From Myxococcota bacterium (GTDB lineage: Bacteria; Myxococcota_A; SURF-8; G963663525): 64,000 bases of DNA. Below the pieces are notes generated by a model. The model did no database searches and was not told the origin of the DNA. It was given only the letters and a program-made list of their open reading frames with translations. The translations under genes and the position numbers were made by a program. The stretch spans positions 32,001 to 96,000 of the forward strand of contig CAXXVK010000012.1 in assembly GCA_963676915.2 (NCBI GenBank), read 5' to 3'. This document shows, piece by piece, positions 10,926 to 61,372 of this stretch (position 1 is its first letter; each line of letters begins with the position of its first letter).

Positions 10926-11057
10926 CTCGTGCCATTCTTTCCAAACGTTCTCTTTCTTCTTATCCCATGATTTTGCATCATTGCCAATCGCTTTCGGCTG
11001 TGCAAGATAGAGAAAAACAGCTTCGTTTGCAAAAAAGTTGCGCAAAGGACAACACTC

Positions 11058-30300: not shown

Positions 30301-33300
30301 ACGATCCGGCGTCTATCACTTCAATTGAAATCAACGAGCCAGGCGAATTTCTGCCTCTTGGCGTCACTCGCAAACTAAGTTTCACGGCCTACGATTCCGC
30401 CGGAAACCCGCTGGCACTATCCGATTCTTTCGCGGTGAACTGGTCCTCCACCCAACCCACACAACTCAGTGTCACTCCACAAGGAGAAATCACAGCGTTG
30501 GCCGCAGGAAACGAAATTGAAATCAGCATCTCGGTACCGGAGCGTCAAGAACTTACGGATACAGTGCCATTCTCGGTGCTTTCTCGTTCAGGCGAAACAG
30601 CCGAACTGGTCGTCGTGAACGCCAGTACCGGCGATGTCATCGAAACTGCCACCGTGCTCCAGGGAACCGAACCTTGCACATATAGCTCTACGAGTCATAG
30701 CTACGTTTGTTCATCAACCTGCGCAGCCGTTCCCTGCAACTTCCATGTGTTTCACTCTGAGTACGAATACGTTTCGATCTTCCAAACCTCAAGTGAATTC
30801 GTGCACATACCGCTGACACCCAACGAAAACCTTGGGGAAGTATCGGGCGTGCAGGGAAAAATGGACATTACTTCGCTCCCGCAAGTATTGCTCAATGAGG
30901 ACATGCTGACCACCCAGTCCGGTTTTGCTCTGAACGGCAACTGGATGAACCGTGGTTTCCGAAATTTCCTGAGCGAATCGGTGAACACTCATCTGGAAAT
31001 TGGCTCTTTTATCAATCAACACCTCGACTTCTCCTCAGGGGCAGAATTGGAGATAGGTACTTATTCCACCCGTACAAAATTCCAAATCGTCACCCCCTTC
31101 CAATCGAATGGCTCGGCATCCATTTGGGGATTTGGCGGACGTATGCCCCTTTTGGACGTAATCAATATTATCACGCCGAACATCAGCAACGAGTTAGATC
31201 TACATACTCTTCTAATAAATATTGAACCATTGTTCTGGGAGAATCTCTGGCATGCGGCAACCGGACTACCCACCGAAAACCACAGCAAACAATGGGATGA
31301 TTTCAGTCAAATCAACTACCTGGACGACCTCTCCGAATTCGAAACACTCTCCAATGGAGCATCGTTACAGGCTGTCATGCCGTTAACCGGCGAGGCCGAC
31401 TTGGAATTTGGTTCCATGCCTTACCTGCCAACGGAAACAGAAGAAGAAGCCTGCTCGCAGATAGCTTTGACCTTGGTGGCGGCCCAGCATCCTAAGTACG
31501 GACTTGTGCCGTTGGGCTTCGGTGTCGGACCCGACGACGATTCCCTTTGCGGTGATGGAGCTTCGTTCCATCAAATCGTGCGATTCGCCCCGCAACACGG
31601 CAACTTGTACGGTTTCCCCTACGTACTCATCACGCTGGCCACGTTTAACGACAGCACGGATATTCTGGGAACGGAAGATTGGTATACCTTCGGATTGTTC
31701 GATTTCGCCTCTACATTCTTCAACGTTTTGGCGCTGCATTCGGCGGCCAGCTTTACCGTGCAGCGCTCGCAGACGATCCCTTCGGGAATTCTTTCTACAC
31801 CTGAATTCGCCCCTTCCGTCACCAATGCCACCTACGACGACGAAACAAAGGCATTTGGTGCATCCACCGACTCTGAAGCAACGTTTGCCCGCGTAACGTT
31901 TTCCAACGAATACGACCAATTCACGTCATTCTGGCAAAAACGGCGCTGGACCGTCTACAGCCCCGCAAGCGATCAAATCGCTTTCAACCTACCGCAAAAC
32001 CTCGATGGGGTGGATTATACGAGAATCTCGAAAATCGAAGCCGGAACCGCCCGTCTGAAAGACGGGACAACATCCTTGACCTACAACGATGTATTCAACT
32101 TCAACGGCACCGATCTTGCAAACATCAATTCTCTGCTCGAAAGCTTCAGTTCTACTCCTCTCCCAATAAATACCTGCGCAAACGTATCCTGCGGACAAGA
32201 AGCTTATTGCGACCAGGAAACCGGCGAATGCGTCTGCTACAATTCCGACTGGGGCGGCAATCCTTACGACTACTGCTACGATCTCTGCGTTTTCGTTGAA
32301 TGCGTAAATAATGCCTCCTGTTTCCGTGGCGAGTGCTCCTGTGACGCCGGATACGAAGGAGACCCCGAAACCGAATGCCTGCCGCGAGAAGATTTCGTCG
32401 CCACCATTATCGATTTCGGCAGCGGAACGCCGGTTCCTTCGATGCGAGTCAATATTCTCGAGCACTTGGGCGAAGAATTCGGCTTCGAAGAACCGATTGT
32501 CGCCGACGAAAACGGAAAGGTCGTCATCAGCTATCCCGTTTACACGGATGAGTTGTATCCTTTCCTGGCCGACTTCCTTGTGTATGGCGATTCAACCAGC
32601 GTCGATACCTATCAGTTCAGCTATCCTTCCTTAAGCGACGACTCTACGCTTTACAGTGTCTCCCAGATAACCTATCAAACGGCGCTTATCACGGCAGGAG
32701 GGGAAATCGAATCGAATACCAACCATGTTTTCGGAATGCTTCTGTGGGAGGACTCGGAGGGCGAAGAGCAGCCCGTAGGCTGCGCGACCATTTCCATTAC
32801 CTCCGCAAATGGCAATTCAGGCAGCGAAGCCGTTCGGTATTTCGGAGACAACGGCTTGCCTACGACGTTGGCAAACCAGTCTTCCATCAACGCCAATCAT
32901 GGGGGATTCCTGATCGGTAACGTGCAACCCGGCGAAGCAACCATCCAGGTCATGACCTACGACAACGAGATCTATTCCCTGGATATTCTTGCCCGTTCGG
33001 ACGCCGCAACCGTGGCCCATATCGTATTGCCCCACGGTCAGTTCTCGGAAAACCCCGGTCCCTGCTCCGGAGGGGTCACCTGTCAAACAGGATATGTCTG
33101 GGCTGAGGGAGAATGCCGAATTGCCGGATTCAGCGGTGAATGCCTGGAAAACTGCACCAATGAAGATTGCATCGACAACAGCGGCATGTGTACCCAGGAC
33201 AACGGCGAGTGCATGCCCGTGTACTGTCGTAGTCATGACGACTGCGCAGACCTCTGGCGCTGCGATGGTCCCGACACCTGGCCGGGGTGGTTCGGCTGCG

Positions 33301-36300
33301 ATTACGTGACGCGAAAATGCTACCGTGGCGTAGGTCCGGACCCTGATTTCTGCGAAGACTACGACGGCGGGCATTATTGTTGCCAGAACGACGATCCTTG
33401 TGGATGGGGACAAAACGGCATTTGCGATTGTGAAACCACCTGCGAGTGGGACATTTCCGACTGTACCGATTACTGCCAGGGTGTAACCTGCGCGGCGCAC
33501 GCTCACTGTGAAATTATCGATTACGACGGCGTCTGCGTCTGTAACAACGGATTCACAGGCGATGGCGCAACCTTGTGTGAACCAGAACACGACTGCAACG
33601 AAACCGGCTTCGAATGCACGGTAGAGAATTCCTATTGTACGACGGAGGGATACTGCGAATGCAACGAAAGCTATGAAGGCGATGCCTACGACCAATGCAA
33701 ACCGAATCCCTGCTTTGAGGTGCAATGCGGTGAAAATGCCACTTGTAACGAAGGTATCTGCTATTGCAACGATGGCTTCGAGGGCGACGCTTCCACGCTT
33801 TGCACTTTGATGTTGCTGTACTGCGACGAAGAAGATGAATGCCCCACGGGCTACCCCTGCCATGACATCGAGCATCGATGCAGGGAAACGGAATGCGACA
33901 CCACAACAGAGTGCGAAAACCGCTATCCGGTGCTCGAACCCGGAGACGCAGCCATGGAATGCGGCGAAGACAATCTCTGCTACCCGCGGCCCTGCCGCAG
34001 CGATGGAGAATGCACCAGCGGATTTACCTGCATGGCGGCTCGCTGTGTCAAAACCGCAGAAGTCGTCCAAGTCTTTTACCTTGAAATCCTCAACGGTTCC
34101 AGCCCCTTACCCGTTGGTGCTTCGATACAGCTTCATGCTGCTGCTTATGACGAGGGAGACAAAATCCTTCCCTTCGACGCTTCGCAATTCGAATGGTCAA
34201 CGACGAATACCAACGGCTCGGTGACAGCGGACGGCCTGTTTACCACCGTATCGGAAGGTTCGGTCAGTGTTGAAGTCTCGGTATCAGGAACGGTGGAACG
34301 TTCTGCCACGGCAACGTTCCGTATCGTCGGGAATGCTACAGCCGACACCGTACGCGTTCAGGTGATCGAGGAACATACGGGGGAGATCATCTCCGATGCG
34401 CACGTCTACCAAGGAGAAACGCAACTGACATACGATGGGCAAAGCGCTTACACAGGAGCCGCCTGTCCGCAATACACCTGTGATTACCATATCTTCCACC
34501 CGGACTACGCCCACGTTTCGATCATGAAGACCACAGCCGAAGACCTGTTGATCCCTCTTGAACCGAACCAGAAACTAGGACAAGTAGAGGGACTTCGAGG
34601 AAACATCGACATGTCGGCCTACCCCGAAGTGTTGCGAGGACAAGACGTTTTCTTCACTCAATCCGCTTTCGCCATGAATGGCAACCTGATGAACCACGAT
34701 TTCGGCTCGATATTGGGAGAACTCGTGGATACCCCCATTCATTTAGGATCGCTCATAAGCGACGACCTGCCTGTTTCCTCTGGATATGTCGGTGGTTTGG
34801 CAAACTCCAACTTCCGCGAGGAGTTCGATATTGTTGGAAAGCCGTCTTCCTTTCCTCGCTACGCCTGGACGCTTGGAGGATATACCGACCTGAGCAGCGT
34901 GATCGACATCATTAGCTCAGACGAAAGCGAAGGAAATCCGGCGTACATGTTCTCGGCCCTCCATCAGCTTTTGGATGGAACCCTCTGGCACGGCACGTCT
35001 GTTTCCAGCGATTTATCTGAAGTTTCAGGTAGTTGGGACACCGAAAACAACAACCAGCCTCTCTATTTCGGTAGTTTGCCGGAACGCTCCATGGCTGTAA
35101 CCGAACCCACAAGCCAGAGAATCTCGGTTCAGGTTCCTGCCCAGTCTTCGATTCCTACCCTCGAAAGTTCCTTATGCCCGGACGTGCTGCTTTCCGTCGT
35201 GACCGCCAACCGCTTCGGATACGGTCAAATTCCACTGGGATACTCCATATCGCAACTGGAAACGGGCTGCACGAGCGGACGAACCCTCGACATCGGCTAC
35301 GCTCCTCAGCACGACGGCATGGACGATTTCCCCTACAATATCATCGTAATGGCGCTGAATCTGAACGAAGCTTTAGCCGATGAAAGTATCGATACACTCT
35401 ACTATTACCTGTTCTTCGAGCCAGCATTTATGTATTACTATTTCCCGCTGGTTACGTCTTTCGGTTCGATGTCCGTCTACCGCGTACAGGCTGGAGAAAT
35501 GCCACCTCCCAGCCTCGACGCTCCCCCTGCTTCGAAGTACGTCGCCAATGCCGTATGGAATCCAAGTACGTTGCAATTCACGGCAGAGGGCGTTCCCGGT
35601 GAATCCCTTACCCGCGTAACCTTCAGCAAGGATTTCGATGCCTACACCAGCGTTTGGGAACGGAAACGGTGGATTGTCTATTATCCCAACAGCCTGACCG
35701 TGGACTTTACCCTTCCCACTGGATTGGAAGGTTCGGAATCCACACGTCTGTACAGCCTCGAAGACAACGCCATCGAAGCCCAATCAGCACGAATGACTCT
35801 GGAAAACAGCGGTGCTCTCATTGGCTACGACGCGCTGCTGGAATTCAACCAAACCAACCTCGACCGAGTAAACCAGTGGTTGGAATCCACCAGTTACTTC
35901 CCGGTTGTCCAGGATGAATACGTAGATCCCTGCGAGTCGGTTTCCTGTGGCACAAACGCCCATTGCGTCGAAGGCCACTGCGTCTGCGATACGGGCTATG
36001 AGGGAGATCCCACCACCGAATGCACAGCCGTCGTTCTGCATGATTTCAGTGCAACGCTTATCAATGCTTCAGGCTCGAACGTCAGCAACATTCCGGTGCA
36101 AATCTATTCAACGGCAACAGGAACGGAACTGACAAGCGAGCCGTTGATTTCCGATGCAGAAGGAAAAATCTATTTCGATTATGCAGAACAACAAAGCGGT
36201 ACGATAGATATCCTTGCTTCGGGCAACGACATGTATCGGAATTCATCCACGTATTCCCTGGACCCGTACTCGCAAAACGTCGAGTTGCTTTTGTATGAAA

Positions 36301-37115
36301 CCTCAACAGTTTCCGCGTTGTACTCCATGTTGGGAGTCACATCGGAAGAAGGAACCTCCATGGTCATCGGCCAGTTATTCTGGACCGATTCTCAAGGAGA
36401 AAAGGAACCGATTGCCTGCGCAAAAATAACAACGAACGATATGACGGGAACCGAAGATTCCGGCTACCTGGCTCGCGTCCGCTATGCCGATGAATCAAGT
36501 AACCTTGTTTCGCTGGAACAACAGGATTCCACAAGTACGGCTGCCTTATTCATCATTTTCAACGTTCCGGCCGGAGAAACCACATTCAACGTGTGGATTT
36601 CAGGCGAGATCCTCACATCGTTCACCCTACGGATCATCGGTGATTCAACGGCCTTTACACCCTTTATCCTGCCGTACGAACAGTTCTCAACCAATCCATC
36701 GACCTGCACACCAAGTTGCCAGGATGGCCAGGTCTTTGCGGACGACGATTGCCGGACGATCGGCTTTAGTTCCTGTCAGGCGGGTTGTTCGAACGTAAAT
36801 TGCCCAGGAACCTACGAAATGTGCACCGTGGACAACGGAGAATGTCAACCCGTGTACTGCACCGCAGATACCGACTGCTACAACCTCTGGCAATGCGATG
36901 GAGAAGAGACCGTATCCACCCAATGGTTCGGCTGCGATACGAGCGTCAACAAATGCCTGCGAGGCGGAGGGGAATCACCCGATTTCTGTACGGGATATAC
37001 CGGTTCCCATTACTGCTGCCAAGCCCACAATCCTTGTGGATGGGCAGAAAACGGCACATGCGATTGCGAAGATACCTGTTCATGGGAAGCAGGAGAATGC
37101 GGCCTGACAAGGTAA
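27330..37115 (+). CDS. Giant (3261 aa) Cys-rich surface lipoprotein with EGF-like, Big_2/Ig-like and YfaP-like domains
   Basis: GGAGG SD, lipobox HMAC, many CxCxxG[YF]xG EGF repeats, CDDGDLCTENDTC repeats and internal duplications. Confidence 0.88.
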   Translation: MKRSFFGRLAVFLFLLIVFTGFGLSHMACSKKKSNVEKITAALANRLTESLSFSGDVELKEGNPPSSSNSPDAPQITKIDAPTRFSASSPFQIVLKTDYRYPSEIDFTIIHVENASKYILVKQPFSKVKRLLRSKTFADILDSSTRLTGSIGDNEDIKELDFVLFFALRNKDGQIGDYRPSDFKIPEDPPDCTDENCCNAGFWVEAGSSCTSGTDESDCTEDKCNAEHVCQSIPVVDGTLCNAGFGVDSGECIEGICEEIANYLPNLLAEALEYQTEGAVKQGEPPETSTEDNLPNISEIILPDELRVGSDFKVILKTDYEATEELAKVIVHVVGSDQYIEFASNLTTVDGVSVITLAGLMNLTLELKGMEFQLSFALQTTQGVTGTYKTVKIVIPEEEPECGIGACCNGGSWVADGDPCLTADGEYCTIDTCDANHKCVYNARPDETSCNDGNDETVGDRCVNGMCAGSECNCSGENTCCDGCKSINEGNTCDDGDLCTENDTCRSGACRSGSDVECPTPENPCLDAGYCQPENGECTYPEPKADGSTCALSDEESGLCENGTCIRPPALRVELTWETTDATSEAGFDLYLVRKRSRGTFGLSPKPVSDPEPISCGICKDTEEACTSDSDCATDSVCLPSATICLEHASFCRAVNELNPDGEPLVTSLGYRCVQPDDGIDDTCWIGNPEPTWGETEANPVFSFTSTATTGREIIEITKPTNDDAYRVVVARRQIANESQPVEAKLAFYVDGVAHQYISANDQTATDGPLVQAISTNGSYWKATDIVWSVMEIRQIPVHDEEAGLSEEPFANPFLLSDSTYAVLNPNDCDQLRSIWCDSSEDFVNEEETASCNDLYFNDVTWCVCEPSCAENASCVEGECVCDEGFSGNPYESCTEISGGDEDSGDVEITPTLCRNDNDCSPEQRCGKPLYECVSQECPENLDSTCQALYPDSDYQIQCDENQMCAPEKCTENSWCDTGYVCVSGQCRQPDDPASITSIEINEPGEFLPLGVTRKLSFTAYDSAGNPLALSDSFAVNWSSTQPTQLSVTPQGEITALAAGNEIEISISVPERQELTDTVPFSVLSRSGETAELVVVNASTGDVIETATVLQGTEPCTYSSTSHSYVCSSTCAAVPCNFHVFHSEYEYVSIFQTSSEFVHIPLTPNENLGEVSGVQGKMDITSLPQVLLNEDMLTTQSGFALNGNWMNRGFRNFLSESVNTHLEIGSFINQHLDFSSGAELEIGTYSTRTKFQIVTPFQSNGSASIWGFGGRMPLLDVINIITPNISNELDLHTLLINIEPLFWENLWHAATGLPTENHSKQWDDFSQINYLDDLSEFETLSNGASLQAVMPLTGEADLEFGSMPYLPTETEEEACSQIALTLVAAQHPKYGLVPLGFGVGPDDDSLCGDGASFHQIVRFAPQHGNLYGFPYVLITLATFNDSTDILGTEDWYTFGLFDFASTFFNVLALHSAASFTVQRSQTIPSGILSTPEFAPSVTNATYDDETKAFGASTDSEATFARVTFSNEYDQFTSFWQKRRWTVYSPASDQIAFNLPQNLDGVDYTRISKIEAGTARLKDGTTSLTYNDVFNFNGTDLANINSLLESFSSTPLPINTCANVSCGQEAYCDQETGECVCYNSDWGGNPYDYCYDLCVFVECVNNASCFRGECSCDAGYEGDPETECLPREDFVATIIDFGSGTPVPSMRVNILEHLGEEFGFEEPIVADENGKVVISYPVYTDELYPFLADFLVYGDSTSVDTYQFSYPSLSDDSTLYSVSQITYQTALITAGGEIESNTNHVFGMLLWEDSEGEEQPVGCATISITSANGNSGSEAVRYFGDNGLPTTLANQSSINANHGGFLIGNVQPGEATIQVMTYDNEIYSLDILARSDAATVAHIVLPHGQFSENPGPCSGGVTCQTGYVWAEGECRIAGFSGECLENCTNEDCIDNSGMCTQDNGECMPVYCRSHDDCADLWRCDGPDTWPGWFGCDYVTRKCYRGVGPDPDFCEDYDGGHYCCQNDDPCGWGQNGICDCETTCEWDISDCTDYCQGVTCAAHAHCEIIDYDGVCVCNNGFTGDGATLCEPEHDCNETGFECTVENSYCTTEGYCECNESYEGDAYDQCKPNPCFEVQCGENATCNEGICYCNDGFEGDASTLCTLMLLYCDEEDECPTGYPCHDIEHRCRETECDTTTECENRYPVLEPGDAAMECGEDNLCYPRPCRSDGECTSGFTCMAARCVKTAEVVQVFYLEILNGSSPLPVGASIQLHAAAYDEGDKILPFDASQFEWSTTNTNGSVTADGLFTTVSEGSVSVEVSVSGTVERSATATFRIVGNATADTVRVQVIEEHTGEIISDAHVYQGETQLTYDGQSAYTGAACPQYTCDYHIFHPDYAHVSIMKTTAEDLLIPLEPNQKLGQVEGLRGNIDMSAYPEVLRGQDVFFTQSAFAMNGNLMNHDFGSILGELVDTPIHLGSLISDDLPVSSGYVGGLANSNFREEFDIVGKPSSFPRYAWTLGGYTDLSSVIDIISSDESEGNPAYMFSALHQLLDGTLWHGTSVSSDLSEVSGSWDTENNNQPLYFGSLPERSMAVTEPTSQRISVQVPAQSSIPTLESSLCPDVLLSVVTANRFGYGQIPLGYSISQLETGCTSGRTLDIGYAPQHDGMDDFPYNIIVMALNLNEALADESIDTLYYYLFFEPAFMYYYFPLVTSFGSMSVYRVQAGEMPPPSLDAPPASKYVANAVWNPSTLQFTAEGVPGESLTRVTFSKDFDAYTSVWERKRWIVYYPNSLTVDFTLPTGLEGSESTRLYSLEDNAIEAQSARMTLENSGALIGYDALLEFNQTNLDRVNQWLESTSYFPVVQDEYVDPCESVSCGTNAHCVEGHCVCDTGYEGDPTTECTAVVLHDFSATLINASGSNVSNIPVQIYSTATGTELTSEPLISDAEGKIYFDYAEQQSGTIDILASGNDMYRNSSTYSLDPYSQNVELLLYETSTVSALYSMLGVTSEEGTSMVIGQLFWTDSQGEKEPIACAKITTNDMTGTEDSGYLARVRYADESSNLVSLEQQDSTSTAALFIIFNVPAGETTFNVWISGEILTSFTLRIIGDSTAFTPFILPYEQFSTNPSTCTPSCQDGQVFADDDCRTIGFSSCQAGCSNVNCPGTYEMCTVDNGECQPVYCTADTDCYNLWQCDGEETVSTQWFGCDTSVNKCLRGGGESPDFCTGYTGSHYCCQAHNPCGWAENGTCDCEDTCSWEAGECGLTR
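30066..37100 (+). repeat. Protein-level duplication of an approximately 1100-aa module (about 30066-33465 and 33820-37100)
   Basis: Paired motifs: FTAYD/AAAYD, HVFHSEYEYVSI/HIFHPDYAHVSI, TQSGFALNGN/TQSAFAMNGN, FAPQHG/YAPQHD, WFGCD, HYCC..PCGW..NG.CDCE.TC.W. Confidence 0.85.
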
Positions 37116-40083: not shown

Positions 40084-43000
40084 ATGGCACGATACAAACT
40101 CCTCATCGTAGATCCGGACAGGGATTTCGTAGACCAACTCAAAGAGGACTTCGAATCCGCACCGGTGGTTATAGAATACGCAGAATCCGGTCGAAAATGC
40201 ATGGAAGTTGCGCAACGTGTGGAACCGGATGTCGTCATTCTTGAAATGAACCTTCCCGACACGACAGGATTCAACCTGTTTAAAGGCATCAAAATCCTAC
40301 CGGCCACGCGACAGTCGACGGTCGTAATAATGGGAAGCGACGTCCACCCGAAAACCTTTGAGGAGCATCAAAAGCTCTCCCGCCATGCCGATGTGTATCT
40401 GCATAAACCGTTTACAGCCGCACATCTCTATTCCGAACTAAGTCTGATTCTGGGTTGGGAACCTTGGGGAGATTCACCTCCGCAGACCTTGGAACAAACT
40501 GTGGTTTCCCTCGATCAAACATGGATCGACCATTCCGACGACTTGGCCAAAACCGACATTCAGGGACTGCAAAGCGAAGCCAGCACATCAGTTAGTTATC
40601 TTGCGCCTGAAGGTTCCGTTCCTTCCGGAGACGACAACGACGAAATCATTGCCAAGCTTCGAGAAGAACTGGCTCTTAGTCTTCATCAACGAGCTTCTGT
40701 AGAAGAAAAGCTGGAAGCCACCGAGCAAAGCAACCGGGAACTTTCTCAACGCATTGAAGAACTCGAATCGAAAAAGACCAGTGAAAACGGTGAAGAACGT
40801 AAAGCACTGGAAAAACGTATCTCCGAATTGGAGCGGGAACGAGACCAGTATCGCCGAACCTGGCAGGAAGAAAAAACCAAGTATCAACGAACGGAAGAAC
40901 TTCGCCGTTCGGCTGTGGAAAAAGCGAAATCCTTTGCGGAGAACGCCCGCAAAGCCCAATCGCTGTACAAAACCGCCAAACAGAAATACCAGGAGGAAAA
41001 CTCCCGTTCGATCGAACTTGCAAAGAAATTGAGCGATGTGGAATCCACGCTCTCTTCCCAAAGCCTCGAACTCGATCCGATTCGCCTCGAACTCGAGCAG
41101 GAACACAAGCGATTCGAGGCACTGGAAAGCGACCTCACCCGTCAACAAGAAGAACTAGACAACAGCCGTCAAGAAGCACAAGCCGCTCGGGATGAATTGA
41201 CCGAAACACAGGAACGTGCCGAAACACTGGAAAACAACCTGGAAACCGTGCGTGCGGAACTTTCGGAACTACAAGAAAAGAACGCAGAACTCGTCGAGTT
41301 GTCCGAAGAGTTGAAAACCCAACTAGAAACACGCAACCAGGAACTGGAAGCACGGGAATCGGATATCGCCGGTGTTCGTTCCAAAGCCTCCACCGCTGAA
41401 GAAGAAGCGGAAACACTGCGGATCAAAGTGGAGGAACTCGAGGAAGAAACATCCCGTCTTCGCGACGAGGCAGAGCAAACCCGAAAAGAACTCGAAACCG
41501 AGTGGAGCGAGAAAGTCGAAAACCTGCTTAATGAGAGGGAAAATCTCGTTTCCGAGTGGAAACAGAAGCTGGAAGAAACCGAAGCGGATCGTTCTGAATT
41601 AAAAGAAAAACTCGAAGAAACACAGCAAGACGAAAATTCGCTGAAAACCGAGTTGGAAACGAAACTTACACAGTTGGAACAACAGCTTGCAGAAAAAGAC
41701 GACCAACTGCGTATTGCGAAAGAAGAAGCCGAAAAGCATCTTGAATCCGTTCGTTCGGAATCTACAGTGCAGCTTGAAGATATCGAAAGCCGCCTTGCCG
41801 AAAAAAGCCGTTGGATCGAGGAGTTGGAAAAAGAGTTGGAAACCAGTGGCGAGAAAATCACTTCACTCGAAGAAGATCATCGCCAAGCGCTGGAATCGTT
41901 GCAAAAAGAACTGGAATCCCGCAACGAAGAGTTGGAAATCCTTCGCCAAAAACTGACCGACGCTCCTACCCAGCAGCAACTGAACCAGATCCAGGAAGAA
42001 GCACAAAAACTCGCCGAACAATCCCATGAGGAAACGCAACAAAAAGAACGGGAACTGGAAGATAGCCGGAAACAGTGGGAATTGGAACGGGAACAGTGGC
42101 TCGAAAAGGAGAAAGCACTCGAGACAGAGCGAGACGATCTGAAGCGAGAACTCGCTGAAATCGGGGAGAAAATCCAACAGTTGGAAGACGAAGCCGAAAC
42201 GACTTCCAAAGACTTCAAGGAGCAGTTGAAAGAACGTGAAATTCAACTCGAACACCTGCGCCGAGAATCCGAAGTCAAAGCCGAGGAAACCCAAAAACTA
42301 CTCGAATTACGACAAGAGGAAACCGAGCAACTCGGCGGTCAAATGGCCGACAAACTCAATGAAGTAAAAGAAATTCTAGCCGAACGCGACAAGCAGCTTG
42401 AAGAACTCGAGAACGAGTTGGAAGCTGAAAAAGAAGAAGCCCGTCGTGCCCTGGAAGAAAAGGACAAAGTGCTTGCACAAGCCGAGCAAGATGCCCAGGA
42501 AAAACTTGCTCAGGCTCAAAAGGAAATCATCGAGCGAGAAAACGAACTCACTCAATTGCGAGAAGAAATCAAAACCCTCGAACCGGACGAAGAGCAACTA
42601 GCCGAAAAAGAAGGCGAGTTGTCTCGGCTTCACTCGGAAATAAACGCCCAACGTGAGGAATACGAGCGCCAACTCGAAGAAATGAAGCAAAAGCTGGAGC
42701 GCCGTGAAAAAGAATTGAACGACTTACTGGAGCAATCGAGCGTTCGTCTGATCAATTCCCACGAAAAATTGCAGGAAAAAGCCGAAGTGATCCAGATGCT
42801 CAACGACCGTTTGAAGCGTCGTGAGATGGAATCAAATGCCAGTGATTCCGATTGGCAAAAACGCCTCAAAGAACTGGAAGCCGAGTTGGAGCACGCCCGT
42901 AAAGAAGCGTATAACCACGGAGCACAAATTTTCGAGTTGGAAGACGGTCTTGAAGCCGCCAAGGAACGCCTGGAAGAAACCAACCGTCAGTTGGAAGAAA

Positions 43001-43983
43001 AACGTCAGGCTGTCGAACCTCTGGAAAAAGAAATCGCCGACCTCAAAGCAGCACTCGAAGAAGCCCGGGTAAAGCTTGAAAATCAAAAGGATCAAGGCGT
43101 GGTCTACGCGGAGGAAATCGATACTTTGGAAGCTTCGATCGAGGAAAAAACGGAGGCTTTGGAGGAATCCGAGCAGGCACGTATCCAGTTGGAAGATCGC
43201 TTGCGAGATATGGTCGAAACTCCATTCCCGCAGAAAAATGGCGAAGTACTCGTCAGGCTCAAGAAAGCCAACGAAGAACTTACCCGCAAAGTGGAAACTC
43301 TGCAAAACGAGTTGCAAAATCGTGGAGACGGTGTGCCGCCACTTCCTGCAAGTTTCGGGAATATCACTGTCCCAAACGTCGTGAAAACCTGGCTGATTTC
43401 CAAAGCCGAGGATATCGAGCTACCGAAAGAGATCGAAGCGATTCAGGGGATTGGCCCTCTTAAAAACAAACTGGCGCAGGGTTGGTCGTTGCTTCGCCGG
43501 ATGGAAGACGATTTCCGCCGAGCGCGTGCGATGTTCGATGAAGTCGAGCGGGAGGACGCCGAGCGGATCGAAGAGTTGGAAAGCCGCCTCGATTCCATCG
43601 CTGAAGGCAATGGAGAAGGTGATTCCGTAAATCAAGCGGCTGTAGATATCTACCGGCAGAAAATCGAAGATCAAAAAAAGAAAATCACTCATCTAAACGA
43701 AGAATTGGAAACCGTACGGATGACGTTGTCGCAATCCAATAGCGGGATTGTGATCGGCTCGGAAGACGAAGAATTGGCTCGGGAGAAGATGAAAGGTGAA
43801 ATCGAAGGGTTACGACGTCAGGTCCAGGCTTCCCGCCACCAGATCAGCCAATACGAGGGAAGAATTCGCGCCATGGGTGACGAACGTTTCAAGACCAAGA
43901 GCCAATTGCTTAAAGCCGAGGAAAAACTGAAAGAACTCGTCGAAATCATTCAACGTCACGATCCGAATTTCAAACTGGACTGA
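40084..43983 (+). CDS. Pseudo-receiver plus long coiled-coil protein (AglZ/FrzS-like)
   Basis: Receiver with Glu at the phospho-Asp site (DVVILEMNLP) and FEEHQKLSRHADVYLHKPF, followed by about 1100 aa of E/K/L/Q-rich heptads. Confidence 0.8.
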   Translation: MARYKLLIVDPDRDFVDQLKEDFESAPVVIEYAESGRKCMEVAQRVEPDVVILEMNLPDTTGFNLFKGIKILPATRQSTVVIMGSDVHPKTFEEHQKLSRHADVYLHKPFTAAHLYSELSLILGWEPWGDSPPQTLEQTVVSLDQTWIDHSDDLAKTDIQGLQSEASTSVSYLAPEGSVPSGDDNDEIIAKLREELALSLHQRASVEEKLEATEQSNRELSQRIEELESKKTSENGEERKALEKRISELERERDQYRRTWQEEKTKYQRTEELRRSAVEKAKSFAENARKAQSLYKTAKQKYQEENSRSIELAKKLSDVESTLSSQSLELDPIRLELEQEHKRFEALESDLTRQQEELDNSRQEAQAARDELTETQERAETLENNLETVRAELSELQEKNAELVELSEELKTQLETRNQELEARESDIAGVRSKASTAEEEAETLRIKVEELEEETSRLRDEAEQTRKELETEWSEKVENLLNERENLVSEWKQKLEETEADRSELKEKLEETQQDENSLKTELETKLTQLEQQLAEKDDQLRIAKEEAEKHLESVRSESTVQLEDIESRLAEKSRWIEELEKELETSGEKITSLEEDHRQALESLQKELESRNEELEILRQKLTDAPTQQQLNQIQEEAQKLAEQSHEETQQKERELEDSRKQWELEREQWLEKEKALETERDDLKRELAEIGEKIQQLEDEAETTSKDFKEQLKEREIQLEHLRRESEVKAEETQKLLELRQEETEQLGGQMADKLNEVKEILAERDKQLEELENELEAEKEEARRALEEKDKVLAQAEQDAQEKLAQAQKEIIERENELTQLREEIKTLEPDEEQLAEKEGELSRLHSEINAQREEYERQLEEMKQKLERREKELNDLLEQSSVRLINSHEKLQEKAEVIQMLNDRLKRREMESNASDSDWQKRLKELEAELEHARKEAYNHGAQIFELEDGLEAAKERLEETNRQLEEKRQAVEPLEKEIADLKAALEEARVKLENQKDQGVVYAEEIDTLEASIEEKTEALEESEQARIQLEDRLRDMVETPFPQKNGEVLVRLKKANEELTRKVETLQNELQNRGDGVPPLPASFGNITVPNVVKTWLISKAEDIELPKEIEAIQGIGPLKNKLAQGWSLLRRMEDDFRRARAMFDEVEREDAERIEELESRLDSIAEGNGEGDSVNQAAVDIYRQKIEDQKKKITHLNEELETVRMTLSQSNSGIVIGSEDEELAREKMKGEIEGLRRQVQASRHQISQYEGRIRAMGDERFKTKSQLLKAEEKLKELVEIIQRHDPNFKLD

Positions 43984-44126: not shown

Positions 44127-44777
44127 GTGGTCGAAAAGCCTCTATTTCCATTGTTTTTAAAATTGGATGGTCGCAAGGTGCTGGTGATCGGTGCGGGGAC
44201 GATCGCTTTACGAAAAATCGAAGCCTTGCTGGAATACGGAGCGCAGGTTAGCGTGATCAGTCGGGACGCGAACGCCGAGATTCAAACAATGGCTTCCGAA
44301 GGAAAAATTCAGCTTGAGCTGGGCGAATTCAAGGAAGAAAGCGTCAAAGACAACATGCTCGTCATCGACGCCACCGGTGACGACGATCTCAGTCCCTGCG
44401 TCGTCGAAACCTGTCGTACGAATGGCGTGTTGCTGAACACCGTGGATATCCCCCCCGCCTGCGATTTCTACATGGCTTCTCGTGTCAGTCGGGGATACCT
44501 GCAAATCGGCATCTCGACAAGCGGCGCGTCTCCGGCACTGGCCAAGCGTTTGCGAGAACATCTCGAACGGCATTTTCCGGCAAAGTGGTCCGACTATCTC
44601 ACCCTGCTTTCACAGGCAAGAGAGCGAATCAAAAAGGCAATTCCCAATAGTCAGAGAGTTCGCAGTTTGGCTGCGGAAGATTTATTGAAGCGCACTATGA
44701 ACGACATGTTCGACGCCACGAAGGATTTAGACGAGGAAAACTTCGAACGCCAATTACGAGCTTTGGAAAAAAGCTAG
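44127..44777 (+). CDS. Precorrin-2 dehydrogenase/ferrochelatase (SirC/Met8/CysG N-terminal domain)
   Basis: FPLFLKLDGRKVLVIGAG, NTVDIP..CDF and IGISTSGASPALAK. Confidence 0.92.
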   Translation: MVEKPLFPLFLKLDGRKVLVIGAGTIALRKIEALLEYGAQVSVISRDANAEIQTMASEGKIQLELGEFKEESVKDNMLVIDATGDDDLSPCVVETCRTNGVLLNTVDIPPACDFYMASRVSRGYLQIGISTSGASPALAKRLREHLERHFPAKWSDYLTLLSQARERIKKAIPNSQRVRSLAAEDLLKRTMNDMFDATKDLDEENFERQLRALEKS

Positions 44778-44940
44778 ATGTCATCCTAAAAATACCGACC
44801 GAAGATTTCGAGGTGATTTCGAGACGAATTCGTCGTTGTCGAGACGCGGAATACCGGGAGTCTTTCAAGTCGAGACCGGCGGCGAAGTCGACCGAAAGCG
44901 TCCGAAAGACGACAGGAGTATATTTTTAGGATGGCTTCTA
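44775..44940 (+). mobile_element. 166-bp MITE-like element, copy A
   Basis: About 20-bp imperfect terminal inverted repeats TAGA(T/A)GTCATCCTAAAAATA..TATTTTTAGGATGGCTTCTA. The left end forms the stop codon of the upstream gene. Confidence 0.85.
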
Positions 44941-44984
44941 ATAAATTCTGTAGCTTTTAGATCACAACTTGGCGCAAATAAAAA

Positions 44985-46013
44985 TCAGCCGAACAATTTT
45001 TGAAGGTTCTCTTTGTAGGGAGCACGAACCACACCCTCTTCGGTGATGATCCCGCTGACCAACTCATTGGGAACGACATCAAAGGCTGGACTCCATACAT
45101 CCACACCTTTCGGCGCCCAGGTGATATCACGATATCCGATGACCTCTTTATGACTGCGCTCTTCGATAGGAATCAGATCGCCGGTTGGAATTTCAAGGTC
45201 GATCGTCGAAGACGGCAAAGCGGCATAAAAAGGAATTTCGTAAAATTTTGCCAGAATGGCCACGCCTAACGTCCCGATTTTATTGCAGACATCACCATTG
45301 GCAACGGTGCGGTCGGAACCAACAATCACTTTCTGGACTTTCCCGGTGGACATCAAACTGGCGGCCATGTTGTCGCAAATCAACGTTACGTCGATACCAT
45401 CCTGCATCAACTCCCAAGTCGTCAATCGCGCGCCTTGCAAGAGAGGACGGGTTTCATCGGCGTACACGTGAATGTTTTTTTCCTGCGCATGGGCGGAACG
45501 AATCACTCCCAACGCCGTTCCCCAACCACCCGTAGCCAAAGCTCCGGCATTGCAATGGGTAAGGATACCATCGCCATCTTCGATCAATTCCGCACCATGT
45601 CGGCCCATTTCCACACACATCGTGATGTCTTCGTCATGGATTTCACGGGCTTCGGCTTCCAGCGCTTCGATCAGGCCGCTCGGGGTACCATCGAAGTCGT
45701 TGTAAACGATACGCATCCTCTCGATCGCCCAGGACAGATTCACCGCCGTGGGACGTGTTGCAAGAAGCGTATCGAGAACTTCTTCAAAGTCTTCGTGCGT
45801 GCATTCACCCTTTTGTTCGGTGATATTGCGCACTTCGACCACGACCCCATACGCTGCAGCAATACCGATGGCCGGAGCTCCACGAACTGCCAACGTACGA
45901 ATGGCGTCGCAAACGATGGTCAGGTTCCGGCAATCCAGATAACTGATCTCGTTCGGCAGGGCGCGTTGGTCGAGAAGGAAAAGCTTTCCATTACTCCATC
46001 CGATGGCTTCCAT
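44985..46013 (-). CDS. mtnA: S-methyl-5-thioribose-1-phosphate isomerase
   Basis: LLDQRALP, VRGAPAIG, TRPTAVNL, LTHCNAGALAT, ETRPLLQGARLT and NKIGT. Start may instead be TTG 46046. Confidence 0.95.
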   Translation of the reverse strand: MEAIGWSNGKLFLLDQRALPNEISYLDCRNLTIVCDAIRTLAVRGAPAIGIAAAYGVVVEVRNITEQKGECTHEDFEEVLDTLLATRPTAVNLSWAIERMRIVYNDFDGTPSGLIEALEAEAREIHDEDITMCVEMGRHGAELIEDGDGILTHCNAGALATGGWGTALGVIRSAHAQEKNIHVYADETRPLLQGARLTTWELMQDGIDVTLICDNMAASLMSTGKVQKVIVGSDRTVANGDVCNKIGTLGVAILAKFYEIPFYAALPSSTIDLEIPTGDLIPIEERSHKEVIGYRDITWAPKGVDVWSPAFDVVPNELVSGIITEEGVVRAPYKENLQKLFG

Positions 46014-46061
46014 GGCGTTCCCCGTTTGTTCTGTTATTCCCGTCAAGATGTTGTGTCACTT

Positions 46062-46090
46062 ATTGTAAACGTGATAGATCTCAAAGGCAA
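46062..46090 (-). promoter_or_regulatory. Putative sigma70 promoter of mtnA
   Basis: TTGCCT-17 bp-TACAAT on the minus strand. Confidence 0.5.
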
Positions 46091-46177
46091 GAGGGATTGA
46101 AATCTTTACGTGTTTTTCATTGAATAACAGTGGAAACCTATAGAAACTCTGAAGTTTTTCAAAGAACGGCAAGCACA

Positions 46178-46560
46178 ATGTGTATTTTCGCTAGAAGTCA
46201 TCCTAAAAATACCGACCGAGGATTTCGAGGTGATTTCGAGACGAATTCGCCGTTGACGAGATGCGGAATACCAGGAATCTTTCAAGTCGAGACCGGCGGC
46301 GAAGTCGACCGAAAGCGTCCGAAAGACGACAGCAGTGTATTTTTAGGATGGCTTCTAGTTTCGTTCCGATTACACTTTTTATCGGCTTGGCCTATCTTGT
46401 GTGGATTCGATTGGATTCACAAAGTGGTCTCAGGAAAAAACTTGGTAACATCATACTGGTATGGCTGCTTGTTTTTTCTTGTATAATACTGGCCGGTTCG
46501 ATACGAGCGACCGTAACGGGCAACGGCCCGCTTACGAAAATCATGGAAATGAACGTCTAA
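46178..46560 (+). pseudogene. Small 2-TM membrane protein gene interrupted by MITE copy B
   Basis: Removing 164 bp (element minus one TA) joins MCIFA to SFVPITLFIGLAYLVWI.. in frame, giving a 72-aa ORF with two hydrophobic helices. Confidence 0.55.
46192..46357 (+). mobile_element. 166-bp MITE-like element, copy B
   Basis: Near-identical to copies A and C; TA at both ends (CTAG context). Confidence 0.88.
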
Positions 46561-46580
46561 CTTTTTAACCGTCCATTGGA

Positions 46581-47525
46581 TCAACGACTTTGCAACAGGC
46601 TTTTCACCTGCTGAACGACCCGTTGGGGCGTTAACCCAGCTTTTTCAAGCATTTGTGCCGGTTCGCCACTTTCCATATAGCGGTTTTCCACACCGATAAT
46701 ACGCATTGGAACGGGTTGAGGTTGGATTACGTTCCATTCGGCCACCGCCGAACCCAATCCACCTGCAACCATGTGTTCCTCGATAGTCACGATCGGTCCC
46801 ATCTGTGCGCAGTTTGAGAGGGTACCGAGATCCAATGGCTTGATCGTGTGCATATTGACCACACGAGGCCGGATGCCTTCCCGGCGCAGGTCGTCGGCTG
46901 CGTCCAGAGCGACGGAAACCATCTGTCCGCAAGCGATCAGGCTGAGATCCTCGCCCTCTTCCAGTACATCCGCCCGCCCCAACTGCCAGTCATCTTCGGG
47001 AGAAGTTACAACAGGAAACTTTTCACGCCCCATACGAAAATAGTATGGATTGGTCCTTTCAGCAGCATCGAGCACAACCTTACGCATCTGGTGGTAATCT
47101 GCCGGAACCACAACCGTCATATTCGGAAGCACGCGCATCAACGCCAGATCTTCGCAGCACTGGTGAGTGGGACCATCTTTGCCTACCGTCACCCCACAGT
47201 GTGCACCAACCACCACAACCCCACACTCGCCGTATGAAAGCTGTTGCCGGGCGATCTCCCATGCCCGACCTACCACAAACATGGCGTAACTTGTCACGAA
47301 TGGTCGCCACCCAGTCAAAGAGAATCCTGCCGCCGTGGCCAGCATCCCCTGCTCGGCGATCCCGAAATCTATGAATCGGTCCGGAAAACGCTCGGCAACC
47401 CTGCTTGTCAATGTCGAGGCAGCTAGATCCGCGTCACAAACCAGAACATTCGGAAATTTTTCACAGGCATCCAACAATCCGTCGGCAAAACCCTCTCGAA
47501 TCAGGCGTTGTTCCCAATTTCGCAT
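46581..47525 (-). CDS. Transketolase, C-terminal (pyrimidine-binding) subunit
   Basis: DADLAAST, DFGIAEQ, GKDGPTHQ, VNMHTIKPLD and TIEEH..GGLGSAV. Confidence 0.95.
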   Translation of the reverse strand: MRNWEQRLIREGFADGLLDACEKFPNVLVCDADLAASTLTSRVAERFPDRFIDFGIAEQGMLATAAGFSLTGWRPFVTSYAMFVVGRAWEIARQQLSYGECGVVVVGAHCGVTVGKDGPTHQCCEDLALMRVLPNMTVVVPADYHQMRKVVLDAAERTNPYYFRMGREKFPVVTSPEDDWQLGRADVLEEGEDLSLIACGQMVSVALDAADDLRREGIRPRVVNMHTIKPLDLGTLSNCAQMGPIVTIEEHMVAGGLGSAVAEWNVIQPQPVPMRIIGVENRYMESGEPAQMLEKAGLTPQRVVQQVKSLLQSR

Positions 47526-47528
47526 GAT

Positions 47529-48402
47529 TCAGACCTCCTTCCGGTACGCTTCGATGAGTTCATCCGGATCACGCTCTTCACCCATAGCTTGCAGACAAAG
47601 AATGGTTTCTTCCTTGGAAGGAGGTTTTCCATGCCAGGATGGATCATTCATGAACGGTTTGATGGGATACATCATCTGTGTACGAAACAGAAGCGCTCTG
47701 GGCTTTCCAGGAGGCGCGTGAAAAGCTTCCTTATACAAATGGTCGATCTGCATGAAATCGTGTCCGTCGGCTTCCCATACCCACCAACCGAATGACCGGA
47801 ATTTCTCGGCCAACGGTTCGATATCCATCACGTCGCTAACCTTGCCATCGATCTGTGCATCATTGCAATCCACGAGCAAATAGAAATTGTCGCTTTTGAA
47901 ATGACCGGCGGCCATGATCGCTTCCCACACAATACCTTCCTGCAACTCACCATCTCCAGCATTGCAGAAAACACGCACGTCTTCCCAACCCTTTTTCCTC
48001 GCTCCCATTGCGATGCCATGGGCAACAGGAATCCCCTGCCCCAAAGAACCGGTGGAAGCTTCCACTCCTGGGACTTTCAATCGATTAGGATGCCCCTGCA
48101 AGGGTGAATCAGCGCTACGAAACGTAGGAAGTACCGAAAGAGGCAAAAGACCCTTTTCAGCCAGCAACGCATAAATCAAACGCCGAGCAATGGCCGTTGG
48201 ACAACACCCAGCGATCTCGTAGTTTCCAGTCGGGGTCTTCCGGGTTCATACGAAGGTATTTCCACCAAAGCACCGTATTGTAGTCCGTCGCACTGAATGG
48301 TCCACCGGGATGTCCTGACCGAGCATGATAGATCATCAAGATGATATGGCGGCGAATACGGGTCGAAAGTTCCAACAATTCCGGGTATGTAATGTTGTTC
48401 AT
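47529..48402 (-). pseudogene. Transketolase, N-terminal (TPP-binding) subunit with a 1-nt frameshift (real mutation or sequencing error)
   Basis: SGHPGG..RDRWVLSNGHCSA in one frame and LIYALLAEKG..LQGHP..STGSLGQG..GDGELQEG..WHGK in the next. One extra T at 48178-48180. Confidence 0.85.
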
Positions 48403-48445
48403 GGCTTGCCGTAAAAGATTGTAAGAGATTGTTATTGGAAAATAT

Positions 48446-48474
48446 AGAATATCTTTAACGAGAATGGATGTCAA
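48446..48474 (-). promoter_or_regulatory. Putative sigma70 promoter of the transketolase genes
   Basis: TTGACA-17 bp-TATTCT, about 45 bp upstream of ATG 48402. Confidence 0.6.
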
Positions 48475-48530
48475 TGGGAAGCAATTGAAATATCGGCCTC
48501 AAACCTGTCCAAATTCCGCCATGATTTCAT

Positions 48531-48696
48531 TAGAAGTCATCCTAAAAATACTGACCGAGGATTTCGAGGTGATTTCGAGACGAATTCGTCGTTGACGAGA
48601 CGCGGAATACCGGAAGTCTTTCAAGTCGAGACCGGCGGCGAAGTCGACCGAAAGCGTCCGAAAGGCGACAGGAGTGCATTTTTAGGATGGCTTCTC
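48531..48696 (+). mobile_element. 166-bp MITE-like element, copy C
   Basis: Near-identical to copies A and B; right end reads CTTCTC (terminal base changed). Confidence 0.85.
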
Positions 48697-58669: not shown

Positions 58670-59195
58670 ATTGTGACCTCCGGTTCGGTCGAGCTGAATT
58701 TCTGCACAACAATAATCGCTTCTACGAAAAGATCGTCTCCCCCCGTTCTGTGCGTTCTCGTTACTATAGCAGATTTCCTCGATTCCCAAGCTGAAAACAT
58801 GAAAAAAGCCTTTCACTGCCGAAACGATCTGAGATGCAATGAAGAGTGTAATCAGTCGAGTGGTCATTTTCTAAAGATTTTGAGAAGAAATCGGATCTTA
58901 GGTTTTCTCATAGGAAGGATCGTTAAGTTTCGTTCACATGGCAGAACGATCTGTAAAGGGAAGTTGTCTTTGGGGGAAATCTTGTCAAATATCCAACTCA
59001 TCGCCAAAGGAACGATGTGAAAGCAAATCGAAGACGAAAAACAGAACCTCTCAAAATAAAAGATCTAAAAAAGCGTTATAATTCCAGCATGTTGAAAATA
59101 CTGGACAAGATTTCTCCGTAAAGGCAGGATAAAATAAGGACAAAGAAAAAACATAGTTTTTTCCTTTCCATTTAAATCGAAAGAATATCCGTTTA

Positions 59196-59211
59196 TGGCA
59201 TCGGTTTTGCA
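59196..59211 (+). promoter_or_regulatory. Sigma54 (-24/-12) promoter
   Basis: TGGCATCGGTTTTGCA, near-consensus, 44 bp upstream of ATG 59255. Confidence 0.8.
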
Positions 59212-59254
59212 AAATCTATTGAGACGAGATATTGGATTAAGACATGGAACGGCC

Positions 59255-61372
59255 ATGAAAAACTTTTTAACATTCTCTTTGGTTCTCCTTTTTATCACGG
59301 TGCAAGGCTGCGTCCTGCAATCCAGCGATTCCGTTGCAGGAGTCAACGACGCTGCCGGTGACAACAGGGACGACGAACAAAACGGTACGGGAGACCTTTC
59401 TCCTGATGGTTCCGTAGACGACTCCGAGTATCCCAACAGTTCAGGAGGGGATGAAGAAGAGATCAACGGACAAGAAGGTGATGGTGATCCTTCTTCGTCC
59501 CATGCTGATGATCTGATCCTACCGTTTCTTGTGAATCTTAGCGGTCTGCAAGACCTTTTCGGAGAAGAGCTGACCAGCTACAATATCGATTACGGCGAAC
59601 AAACCGACCTGATGCTGACCGAAACGTCCCCCTACGCCGGCATCACTTTCGACGCTTTGGCAGGAGCCAATATCACCGCAACGGTTTCGGCTCCCTCCGA
59701 TAGCTTCGTAAGCCCTGTTCTTGTCCTGTACGGCCCGAAAAGCTCAACAGGATTGTGGAGCCGAGAAATCGCCATGAAAATCGCCGATGAAGGTCAGCAC
59801 GAAGCATTTCTGTACTCGATTCCCATCGATACCGAAGGCCAATATCTCCTGTTGGCAACGGGACTTCCCATCATCCCGGATACACCCCTGGAAGTCACAT
59901 TGGGTTGCCATGGACAATGCGTCGAGCCGTATTGCCCCGACAACACCTGTCAGGCGTTTTGTCCCGAAGGTTTCCGATTGGACGCCAACGGCTGCCCGTC
60001 CTGCCAATGCCGGGAAGCGACCTGTTCCTGTCTCGAAGACGAAGATTGCCCCCAAGGTCATTATTGTATGGATTGCCAGTGCCTCCCGGAAGAAAATCCT
60101 CCCGATGGCGACGATGACCTTTGCGGATGTCCCGACGATTGGGATCCCGTATGTACCGAGGACGGTACGCAATTCGCCAACGATTGCATAGCGTTATGCC
60201 TGCTTGGTCCAGAGACAACCTTCATGCCCTGCAACGATCCGGGTGACACTTGCGTGACCGATGAAGATTGCATTGAAGGCACCATGTGCGTCGCGGGGGT
60301 CTGCTCGGCCAATACCGATTGCAACTGTACAGGCATTTACGATCCAGTGTGTGGCGTCAACGGCGTAACCTATGCCAACGAATGCGAAGCGTCCTGCATC
60401 GGTGTGGCAATTGCCTACATCGGCGATTGCTCCGACCCCGCAAACCTGATTTGCGAACCGGTCTGTATCAGCGCTTCGGGTACTGAAGCCTGGAACTTCC
60501 CTTGCACGGGAGACGTGGTATTCGATAGCTGTTTGGGCTGTTACGCCTCCTGCGACCAGGCCGAAACTCGTCAGGAAGGTTGGTACGCCCACTGCATCAT
60601 TGACGACATCGGCGAAGAAACGATCACCTTGATTCAGTATGCTGACTGCGTACTCAACTGCGGTTGCCCGGATACTTGGGAGCCTGTTTGCAGTCTCGAT
60701 GGTGTAACCTATCCCAACCTCTGTGAACTTGACTGTGCCGACGCGATGTTCGGCTACGAAGGAGAATGCGAGGAAGGTATTTTCGGATGCCTTGAAAACA
60801 GCGACTGCCCGACCGGAGAAATCTGCATGCTCGACAATCTCGAAGGTTGCTCCGAAGACGATTACGGTTCCAGCCCGGAATGCACCGGCTTTTGCATAGA
60901 GTATCCCGACGTTAACGACATGCCCTGTACAGCCAACGCGGACTGCCCCGCCGGTTATGCATGCGTCGAAGGATATTGTCAGGTTTCCTGGAGCGCGGAC
61001 GACTGCATCATTACGGGGAGACATGGTGAAATCTGCGCGAACGAAGAAGTCACGACGCAATCAGCCTATTCCGACGAATTTGCATGCTATGGACTCTCCG
61101 AATGCACGCTCCTTGAAACCGGCGAGTGCGGTTGGCTGGAGACCCCGGATTTTCTGGAATGTCTGAGTTTCACAGGTCGCACGGAATGCGACTCCGATGG
61201 ACAATGCACAAGTGGCCAATATTGCTCAGCCGAAGGTTTTTGCCAGACAATGGACTGCCAGTGCCCCGGCATCGTGATGCCGATCTGCCTCCCGGACGGC
61301 AACCGATATGCAAGCCCTTGCATTGCCGCCTGCGAAAACATTACGGAAGAGCAAATCGACTTCTGTGAATAG
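59255..61372 (+). CDS. Cys-rich lipoprotein with four Kazal-type domains and an antistasin-like repeat
   Basis: Lipobox VQGC; four CxCxxxxxP[VI]CxxxGxx[YF]xxxC motifs; CPDNTCQAFCPEGFRLDANGCPSCQC. Confidence 0.85.
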   Translation: MKNFLTFSLVLLFITVQGCVLQSSDSVAGVNDAAGDNRDDEQNGTGDLSPDGSVDDSEYPNSSGGDEEEINGQEGDGDPSSSHADDLILPFLVNLSGLQDLFGEELTSYNIDYGEQTDLMLTETSPYAGITFDALAGANITATVSAPSDSFVSPVLVLYGPKSSTGLWSREIAMKIADEGQHEAFLYSIPIDTEGQYLLLATGLPIIPDTPLEVTLGCHGQCVEPYCPDNTCQAFCPEGFRLDANGCPSCQCREATCSCLEDEDCPQGHYCMDCQCLPEENPPDGDDDLCGCPDDWDPVCTEDGTQFANDCIALCLLGPETTFMPCNDPGDTCVTDEDCIEGTMCVAGVCSANTDCNCTGIYDPVCGVNGVTYANECEASCIGVAIAYIGDCSDPANLICEPVCISASGTEAWNFPCTGDVVFDSCLGCYASCDQAETRQEGWYAHCIIDDIGEETITLIQYADCVLNCGCPDTWEPVCSLDGVTYPNLCELDCADAMFGYEGECEEGIFGCLENSDCPTGEICMLDNLEGCSEDDYGSSPECTGFCIEYPDVNDMPCTANADCPAGYACVEGYCQVSWSADDCIITGRHGEICANEEVTTQSAYSDEFACYGLSECTLLETGECGWLETPDFLECLSFTGRTECDSDGQCTSGQYCSAEGFCQTMDCQCPGIVMPICLPDGNRYASPCIAACENITEEQIDFCE

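Follow-up and report, generated by a model that had tools for sequence, protein, structure and literature searches.

In the sections of the literature that deal with them, the miniature inverted-repeat transposable elements of bacteria (MITEs) are described as TA-ended sequences of 100–200 bp that form long stem-loops, and ERIC and Correia elements as repeats that alter mRNA decay when co-transcribed, with RNase E effects that for ERIC depend on orientation (PMC2229807; PMC3184786). Compensatory changes are described for bcr1 (PMC3184786), and pneumococcal repeats, enriched between convergent genes, are read as parasites in the corresponding part of PMC3049150. As to how such sequences move, the passages of a 2008 review that treat the matter hold that the mobiliser of many TA-ended hairpin repeats was unknown or guessed and that no MITE mobiliser had experimental proof at that date; for RUP, the TA ends were used as a hallmark of the IS630 family (PMC2229807). 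Here we describe a 166-bp element found in three near-identical copies in a 64,000-nucleotide stretch of the genome of a Myxococcota bacterium (assembly GCA_963676915.2, contig CAXXVK010000012.1, positions 32,001 to 96,000 of the forward strand; hereafter the window). It is probably an uncatalogued family of type II MITEs with insertion sequence (IS) ends of the IS5/IS427 type, moved in trans into TA sites.

Copies A (44775–44940), B (46192–46357) and C (48531–48696), all on the + strand, are 92–95% identical to each other, sharply bounded, and have unique, unrelated flanks; nhmmer recovered them from the window (E ~1e-61), as a first-pass annotation made from the sequence alone had described. 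Both TA dinucleotides are counted in these coordinates, the net length being 164 bp if TA is duplicated. The copies differ at 14 of 166 sites, by 10 transitions and 4 transversions, which together with the unique flanks rules out an assembly artefact; the transitions include 7 from GC to AT, as drift would lead one to expect. The G+C content of the element is 49% versus 38–45% in the flanks, and with its length (<500 bp), three copies and one fragment per 64 kb and no transposase it answers to the definition of a MITE. The fragment (D, 5021–5086, +) had been taken for a decayed copy: the sequence is indeed related (~66 bases, ~80% identity, profile positions 25–79, E = 2.8e-9), but only the 5' third is there, with no right arm. 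It starts with GA and has a 13-nt gap after its first 12 bases, in the left terminal inverted repeat (TIR) region. Fragment D terminates (5080–5098) in a perfect 7-bp hairpin at the apex position of A–C, a feature that could represent a sister subfamily's apex and not decay. Neither nhmmer nor a covariance model found further copies in the window, and the covariance model also missed fragment D. One reading frame is open across all three copies (55 codons; B: 46193–46357, +); a profile of this +1 frame had 4 matches among 1.84 billion proteins, all of them unrelated repetitive proteins, so that nothing here points to a peptide role or to relatives among spurious open reading frames (ORFs).

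The TIRs are 21 bp long, with 93.7% of their cells paired. They lie at 44775–44795 (+) and 44920–44940 (−) in A, at 46192–46212 (+) and 46337–46357 (−) in B, where they are best preserved and the target context is C-TA-G, and at 48531–48551 (+) and 48676–48696 (−) in C, where the right one carries two pair-breaking changes. Repeats of about 20 bp ending in TA had been reported; the length was close, but both ends carry TA only in A and B, the right-hand terminal TA of C having become TC, which leaves TA at 5 of 6 ends. The left TIR of A consists of TA followed by an IS427-group-type end.

Queries of 32 bases from each element end were searched against plasmids and gave 14 and 9 rows, with chance-level E-values; five of these 23 rows, none with a gene under the match, were fetched. 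Two of the five matches fall precisely on the outer end of an element that is bounded by TIRs and has an inverted partner; the other three (L001, L003 and L005) have no partner end and were set aside as chance. On Deinococcus ficus pDFI1 the matching ends bound a TA-flanked 1383-bp element (L004, 2503–3885) with a passenger gene, a DUF4096 ORF and an offset DDE ORF that scores above the cut-off of NF033580 (IS5 family), and both of its ends are 17/18 identical to the right end of the window element (first 18 nt of the right TIR of B). On Rhodothermus marinus pRMAR01 they bound a gene-less 255-bp element (L002, 2501–2755), which has a second copy of 246 bp (L018, 41588–41833); the first 18 nt of the left TIR of B are 17/18 identical to an IS5-family right end of R. 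marinus. The annotation had named an exact match to a catalogued MITE or IS end as evidence against its proposal of a structured RNA, and the match found, at 17/18, comes close to that without being exact. The pRMAR01 pair is unannotated and shares its ends with an IS5-family remnant (L010) on the same plasmid; one of its copies is identical in the plasmid of a second strain. The D. ficus transposase is unannotated too and is interrupted by a stop. The A6G slippage motif is absent from its element, the ORF junction having an A5G5 run instead, and two of the Deinococcus IS5-family elements (L004:2503–3885 and L006:936–2732) hold extra passenger DNA within their TIRs.

As a control for circularity, 11 further loci (of 1089 records) were chosen by transposase similarity alone and their ends were read afterwards, those of L006 (D. 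deserti) and L010 (the R. marinus remnant) being located by BLAST. End identity was 17/18 for the R. marinus remnant (one end), 16/18 and 16/18 for D. deserti plasmid 2, 15 and 14 of 18 for Leptospira weilii, 12–14/18 for five other Deinococcus loci, 6/18 for one locus of doubtful limits (L014) and 5–6/18 for two distant alphaproteobacterial IS5 elements; in the background, 3 of 199,928 18-mers reached at least 14/18, and two of these were such IS ends. The likeness falls off with transposase distance, and thus end likeness follows transposase likeness. The interior of the element had no real match in six IS bodies (two 11-mers, E = 0.32). Since its TIRs resemble IS ends and its interior does not resemble IS bodies, the element counts as a type II MITE as the relevant part of PMC10969869 uses the term. 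ISPam4, a relative at 37% identity, is listed in Table 2 of PMC3281130 as IS5/IS427 with a 2-bp direct repeat, the length given there for most IS427-group entries; where that source treats the group, it gives two overlapping ORFs and cointegrate formation. NF033580, the ORF layout and the 37% identity to ISPam4 suggest that the matching ISs belong to the IS427 group. TA is presumably duplicated at insertion, its presence at 5 of 6 ends being consistent with a 2-bp direct repeat.

The absence of a transposase from the window, also stated by the first-pass annotation, was confirmed: Pfam found none among the 41 main ORFs (of 188 ORFs of at least 90 aa), and tblastn of the candidate parent transposase on the window gave its best match (E = 0.024) inside a Kazal-repeat gene. 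In the mechanism that we favour, an IS5-family DDE transposase of the IS427-group type, whose gene lies in another part of the genome or has been lost since, would bind the outer 16–18 bp of the TIRs and insert the element at TA in A+T-rich intergenic DNA, duplicating TA; we infer both the identity and the presence of this enzyme in the host, as we do transcription of the element. Copies would persist where they are harmless. Copy A would be such a case: it begins at the TAG stop of a + strand precorrin-2 dehydrogenase/sirohaem-synthesis gene (44127–44777), whose last three bases are the first three of the element, so that its TA falls within the stop codon and leaves the end of the protein as it was. 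The C-terminus of the protein is the same as in an 87% relative (P0002), and excision of A plus one TA would leave TAA as the stop at that codon. The interior is a centre-symmetric but imperfect rod whose mismatches, like those of ERIC, are purine-rich on one strand. Co-transcription would let the rod fold, possibly with an effect on mRNA ends, as a side effect or a secondary constraint and not as the driver of movement.

The annotation had gone further and proposed a MITE or mobile non-coding RNA under selection for a single-stranded structure; the first of these has gained a candidate mobiliser in the IS5 family, while selection on the RNA fold was not shown, three near-identical copies giving little covariation power. 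The rod comprises 49 pairs in two helices, with 6 G-U pairs on the + strand, and the pairings that had been pointed out are there, three U-G pairs in UUCGUCGUUG/CGGCGGCGAA and one in the TIR. As one long hairpin it is the minimum-energy fold of B only; A and C are branched, with the rod 0.2 and 0.9 kcal/mol above the minimum. The left arm of the inner rod (element positions 32–64; 44806–44838 in A, 46223–46255 in B, 48562–48594 in C, +) holds 5 consensus G-U pairs, with purines at all unpaired positions, and faces the right arm (positions 103–133; 44877–44907, 46294–46324 and 48633–48663, +). Purifying selection on this inner rod in the form of single-stranded RNA, a proposal made for ERIC and bcr1, would be an addition compatible with the MITE reading; copies in 3' untranslated regions would change mRNA decay according to orientation and thereby shape which copies and orientations survive. 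We hold this to be possible but doubtful. In its favour, the centre-symmetry of the interior was highest with + strand G-U pairs (z = 3.2–3.9, versus 2.2–2.7 for Watson-Crick pairs only and 2.4–2.8 with − strand G-U), values reached by 0–4, 6–23 and 7–20 of 1000 shuffles, respectively; G-U outnumbered A-C by 6 to 0 in the fold-derived helices (P = 0.03); the inner helix (28 pairs) has no broken pair and one neutral, one-sided change; copy A starts at a stop codon on its structured strand; and there are the precedents of orientation-dependent RNase E effects and of compensatory changes noted above for ERIC and bcr1.

However, a transition mismatch in a palindrome is a G-U pair on one strand by construction, and in the unbiased, Watson-Crick-only alignment G-U stood at 5–6 against 2–3 A-C (6:2 or 6:3, P = 0.29–0.51). 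Two-sided changes were found at none of the 49 pairs, nor did any covary, which across three near-identical copies is a comparison of almost no power. The change in copy B that had been cited as keeping the stem is real (C-G at pair 59:108), but 4 of the 21 pairs of the TIR helix, omitted from that account, are broken (1:166, 5:162, 20:147 and 21:146). Fold energy of the whole element stayed low after composition control (z = −3.37 on the + and −4.01 on the − strand, which gives no strand an advantage) because of the TIRs; neither strand of the interior had a lower energy than its shuffles (z = −0.6 to +1.0), the interior's strand gap was within ~1 sd of the shuffled gap, and a 48-nt invariant run had P = 0.10. 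The Rfam search suggested with the annotation gave no match for the element at the gathering threshold or at E = 10. RNAalifold on the two R. marinus MITEs was uninformative: the energies were similar, and each of the strands had 2 two-sided changes. Copies B, C and D sit between − strand genes, so that in 3 of 4 copies the + strand, with its G-U pairs, runs antisense to the genes on either side and read-through there would carry the less structured strand, the one without G-U pairs; B and C moreover lie upstream of promoter-like sites (46090–46062 and 48474–48446, −) between them and the next gene, and may not be transcribed, although such sites are weak as a class (6 found versus 3.9 expected).

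The same strand bias was seen in ERIC. An unannotated copy from the aceF-lpd interval of E. coli K-12, which we call ERIC for its match to the core motif given in part of PMC2759123, was combined with 8 relatives fetched of 287 plasmid records; one of these 9 loci is mis-delimited (L026) and was left out of the pair-type ranges and kept for the summed alignment score. In the 8 well-delimited copies one strand has 9–14 purine-purine versus 0–3 pyrimidine-pyrimidine oppositions, with 27 G-U versus 17 A-C in total, and the better strand folds 8–23 kcal/mol lower; copies A–C have 11–12 versus 2–4 and a gap of 6–10 kcal/mol. The strand-biased rod is therefore a trait of the class and not a new property, and G-U pairing on one strand, seen in ERIC copies too, does not on its own point to a new RNA. 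A functional constraint on this ERIC-like, one-sided rod is a tentative suggestion at most. The core (approximately positions 17–150) might itself be a remote ERIC-superfamily element enclosed by, or always having had, IS427-group ends, which we consider unlikely. It is ERIC-sized and aligned better in the same than in the opposite orientation with 9 of 9 ERIC loci; the summed score had z = 3.5 against dinucleotide shuffles (0/1000) and 3.1 against palindrome-keeping shuffles (3/1000), and the core and the aceF-lpd copy have two words in common, an exact 10-mer close to the right end and, close to the left end, a 7-mer. Yet a profile of the 9 ERIC copies missed A, B and C at E = 50 and reached D at no better than E = 16, the reverse search with a profile from the window copies missed the aceF-lpd copy, and BLAST of the whole element gave no match in E. 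coli genomes; 3 of the 9 ERIC copies had z < 1.6, the ERIC copies are not independent, a purine bias common to the core and ERIC can inflate same-strand scores, and the limits of the core were set after the likeness had been seen. The likeness is suggestive as regards sequence, a lead and not membership. That an ERIC-superfamily rod kept by selection on its single-strand fold carries IS5/IS427-group ends in a Myxococcota-like host is a quite improbable combination; if true, ERIC-type cores would extend far beyond Gammaproteobacteria, and there would be a concrete, testable candidate class of enzyme for moving such hairpin repeats.

Movement of a TA-targeting MITE by an IS630-family transposase, as proposed for RUP, would account for the TA ends on the hallmark cited above, but only IS5-family IS ends were matched and no IS630 end was among the 23 plasmid rows, and we judge it very unlikely. 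More improbable still is a stand-alone structured non-coding RNA gene or an element moving through RNA: the fold is stable (z = −3.4) and 4 of 4 copies (A–D) have the same orientation (P = 0.125), but the significance of the fold comes from the TIRs, the ends are of DDE type, copies A, B and C contain no promoter-like or terminator-like sites, Rfam had no match and no reverse transcriptase was found among the 41 ORFs. Several observations weigh against movement by an IS427-group transposase. No parent IS and no empty site was recovered from the host, both genome scans being blank (the interior pattern had 0 matches in GTDB species genomes, so that no copy came to light beyond the window, and of 575 pattern matches in the scan aimed at the orthologous sirohaem locus 0 were confirmed); the matching ISs come from unrelated phyla; and the D. 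ficus element was found through TIR similarity, so that its own end score is circular. TIR pairing extends 3–5 bp past the IS match and the interior is palindromic, neither of which transposase binding explains. In both R. marinus MITEs that have these ends the purine bias is missing (10 purine-purine versus 9–10 pyrimidine-pyrimidine), so that the rod would be of separate origin and not needed for such ends. Finally, the inner helix varies less than the rest of the element, with 1 of 56 sites versus 13 of 110 elsewhere (Fisher P = 0.036, post hoc) or, against unpaired sites, P = 0.022 (post hoc), and holds 1 of the 14 variable sites. We nevertheless favour a type II MITE with IS427-type ends. 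Searches with the whole element gave chance matches only in plasmids and phages (17 and 2 records, best E = 0.5), the covariance model found nothing at E < 0.5 in 18 fetched loci, and in the open literature, ISfinder and subscription journals aside, no paper on this 166-bp family was found.

The neighbours of the copies are housekeeping genes. The end of copy A is 45 bases from the stop of the convergent mtnA (methylthioribose-1-phosphate isomerase; 44985–46013, −), whose product has its closest named relative in a Myxococcales bacterium (63%), which suggests a Myxococcota-like host, and genes for the N- and C-halves of a transketolase (46581–48402, −) lie between B and C. The N-half is split over two frames (48157–48402 and 47529–48179, −) by an apparent one-base shift in a short T run (48157–48200), apparently a sequencing error or a recent pseudogene. 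Elsewhere in the window a 725-aa protein (59195–61372, +) has Kazal and antistasin protease-inhibitor repeats, a 3266-aa repeat protein (27315–37115, +) has only a weak immunoglobulin-like match, and in a 1299-aa protein (40084–43983, +) a receiver domain precedes a very long stretch of low complexity that is probably a coiled coil. In a 464-aa ORF (10386–11780, −) the RimM domains occupy residues 294–454, the N-terminal 290 aa being unexplained and attributable to a fusion or a wrong start. A second, unrelated gene-less element of ~208 bp (995–1202) has a 15-bp perfect TIR and 7-bp direct repeats at its flanks, and encloses facing 27–32 bp arms of GTAG type (1051–1082 and 1128–1159), which we take to be REP-like; neither this element nor its end had a match in plasmids.

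Two described classes were ruled out for the 166-bp element. attC sites follow a core-site rule; here there is no cassette array, the flanks are housekeeping genes and no integrase was found among the 41 ORFs. REP/REPIN sequences were excluded by the DDE-type ends and the lack of a short tagged palindrome. With this element an uncultured lineage contributes one more MITE family, so far uncatalogued, whose mobiliser is pointed to with unusual clarity. Its significance would grow if the inner rod showed real covariation across many copies or if the core turned out to be homologous to ERIC; a combination of IS427-group transposase and ERIC-type rod would then be directly testable.

Compared with known systems, the element shares with ERIC (IRU, RU-1) of enterobacteria a TA-ended intergenic rod with purine-rich mismatches and G-U pairs on one strand, a frame open through the element and a location at gene 3' ends. 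It differs in length (166 versus 127 bp), in its longer and different TIR and in having no match to the 127-bp family. RUP, Correia/NEMIS, RPE, Nezha and Chunjie, compared by their descriptions in reviews, are likewise of 100–235 bp, with TIRs, long stem-loop transcripts and mobilisers inferred from TIR likeness, but other mobilisers are proposed for RUP (IS630-Spn1) and Nezha (ISNpu3), and Chunjie has 9-bp direct repeats. The pRMAR01 MITE pair of R. marinus is gene-less and TA-ended and has the same type of TIR (17/18 at one end), with weak similarity in the first 50 bases, most of it in the TIR (E = 0.002), but is longer (246–255 bp) and has a non-homologous interior. The elements of the IS5-family, IS427-group type (NF033580; D. 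ficus, D. deserti and the R. marinus remnant), of which ISPam4 and ISDds9 are named relatives, have a transposase, an unrelated interior and hosts in other phyla; what they have in common with the window element is the outer 18 bp (16–17/18), the boundary TA and often, as at copy B, a C-TA-G context.

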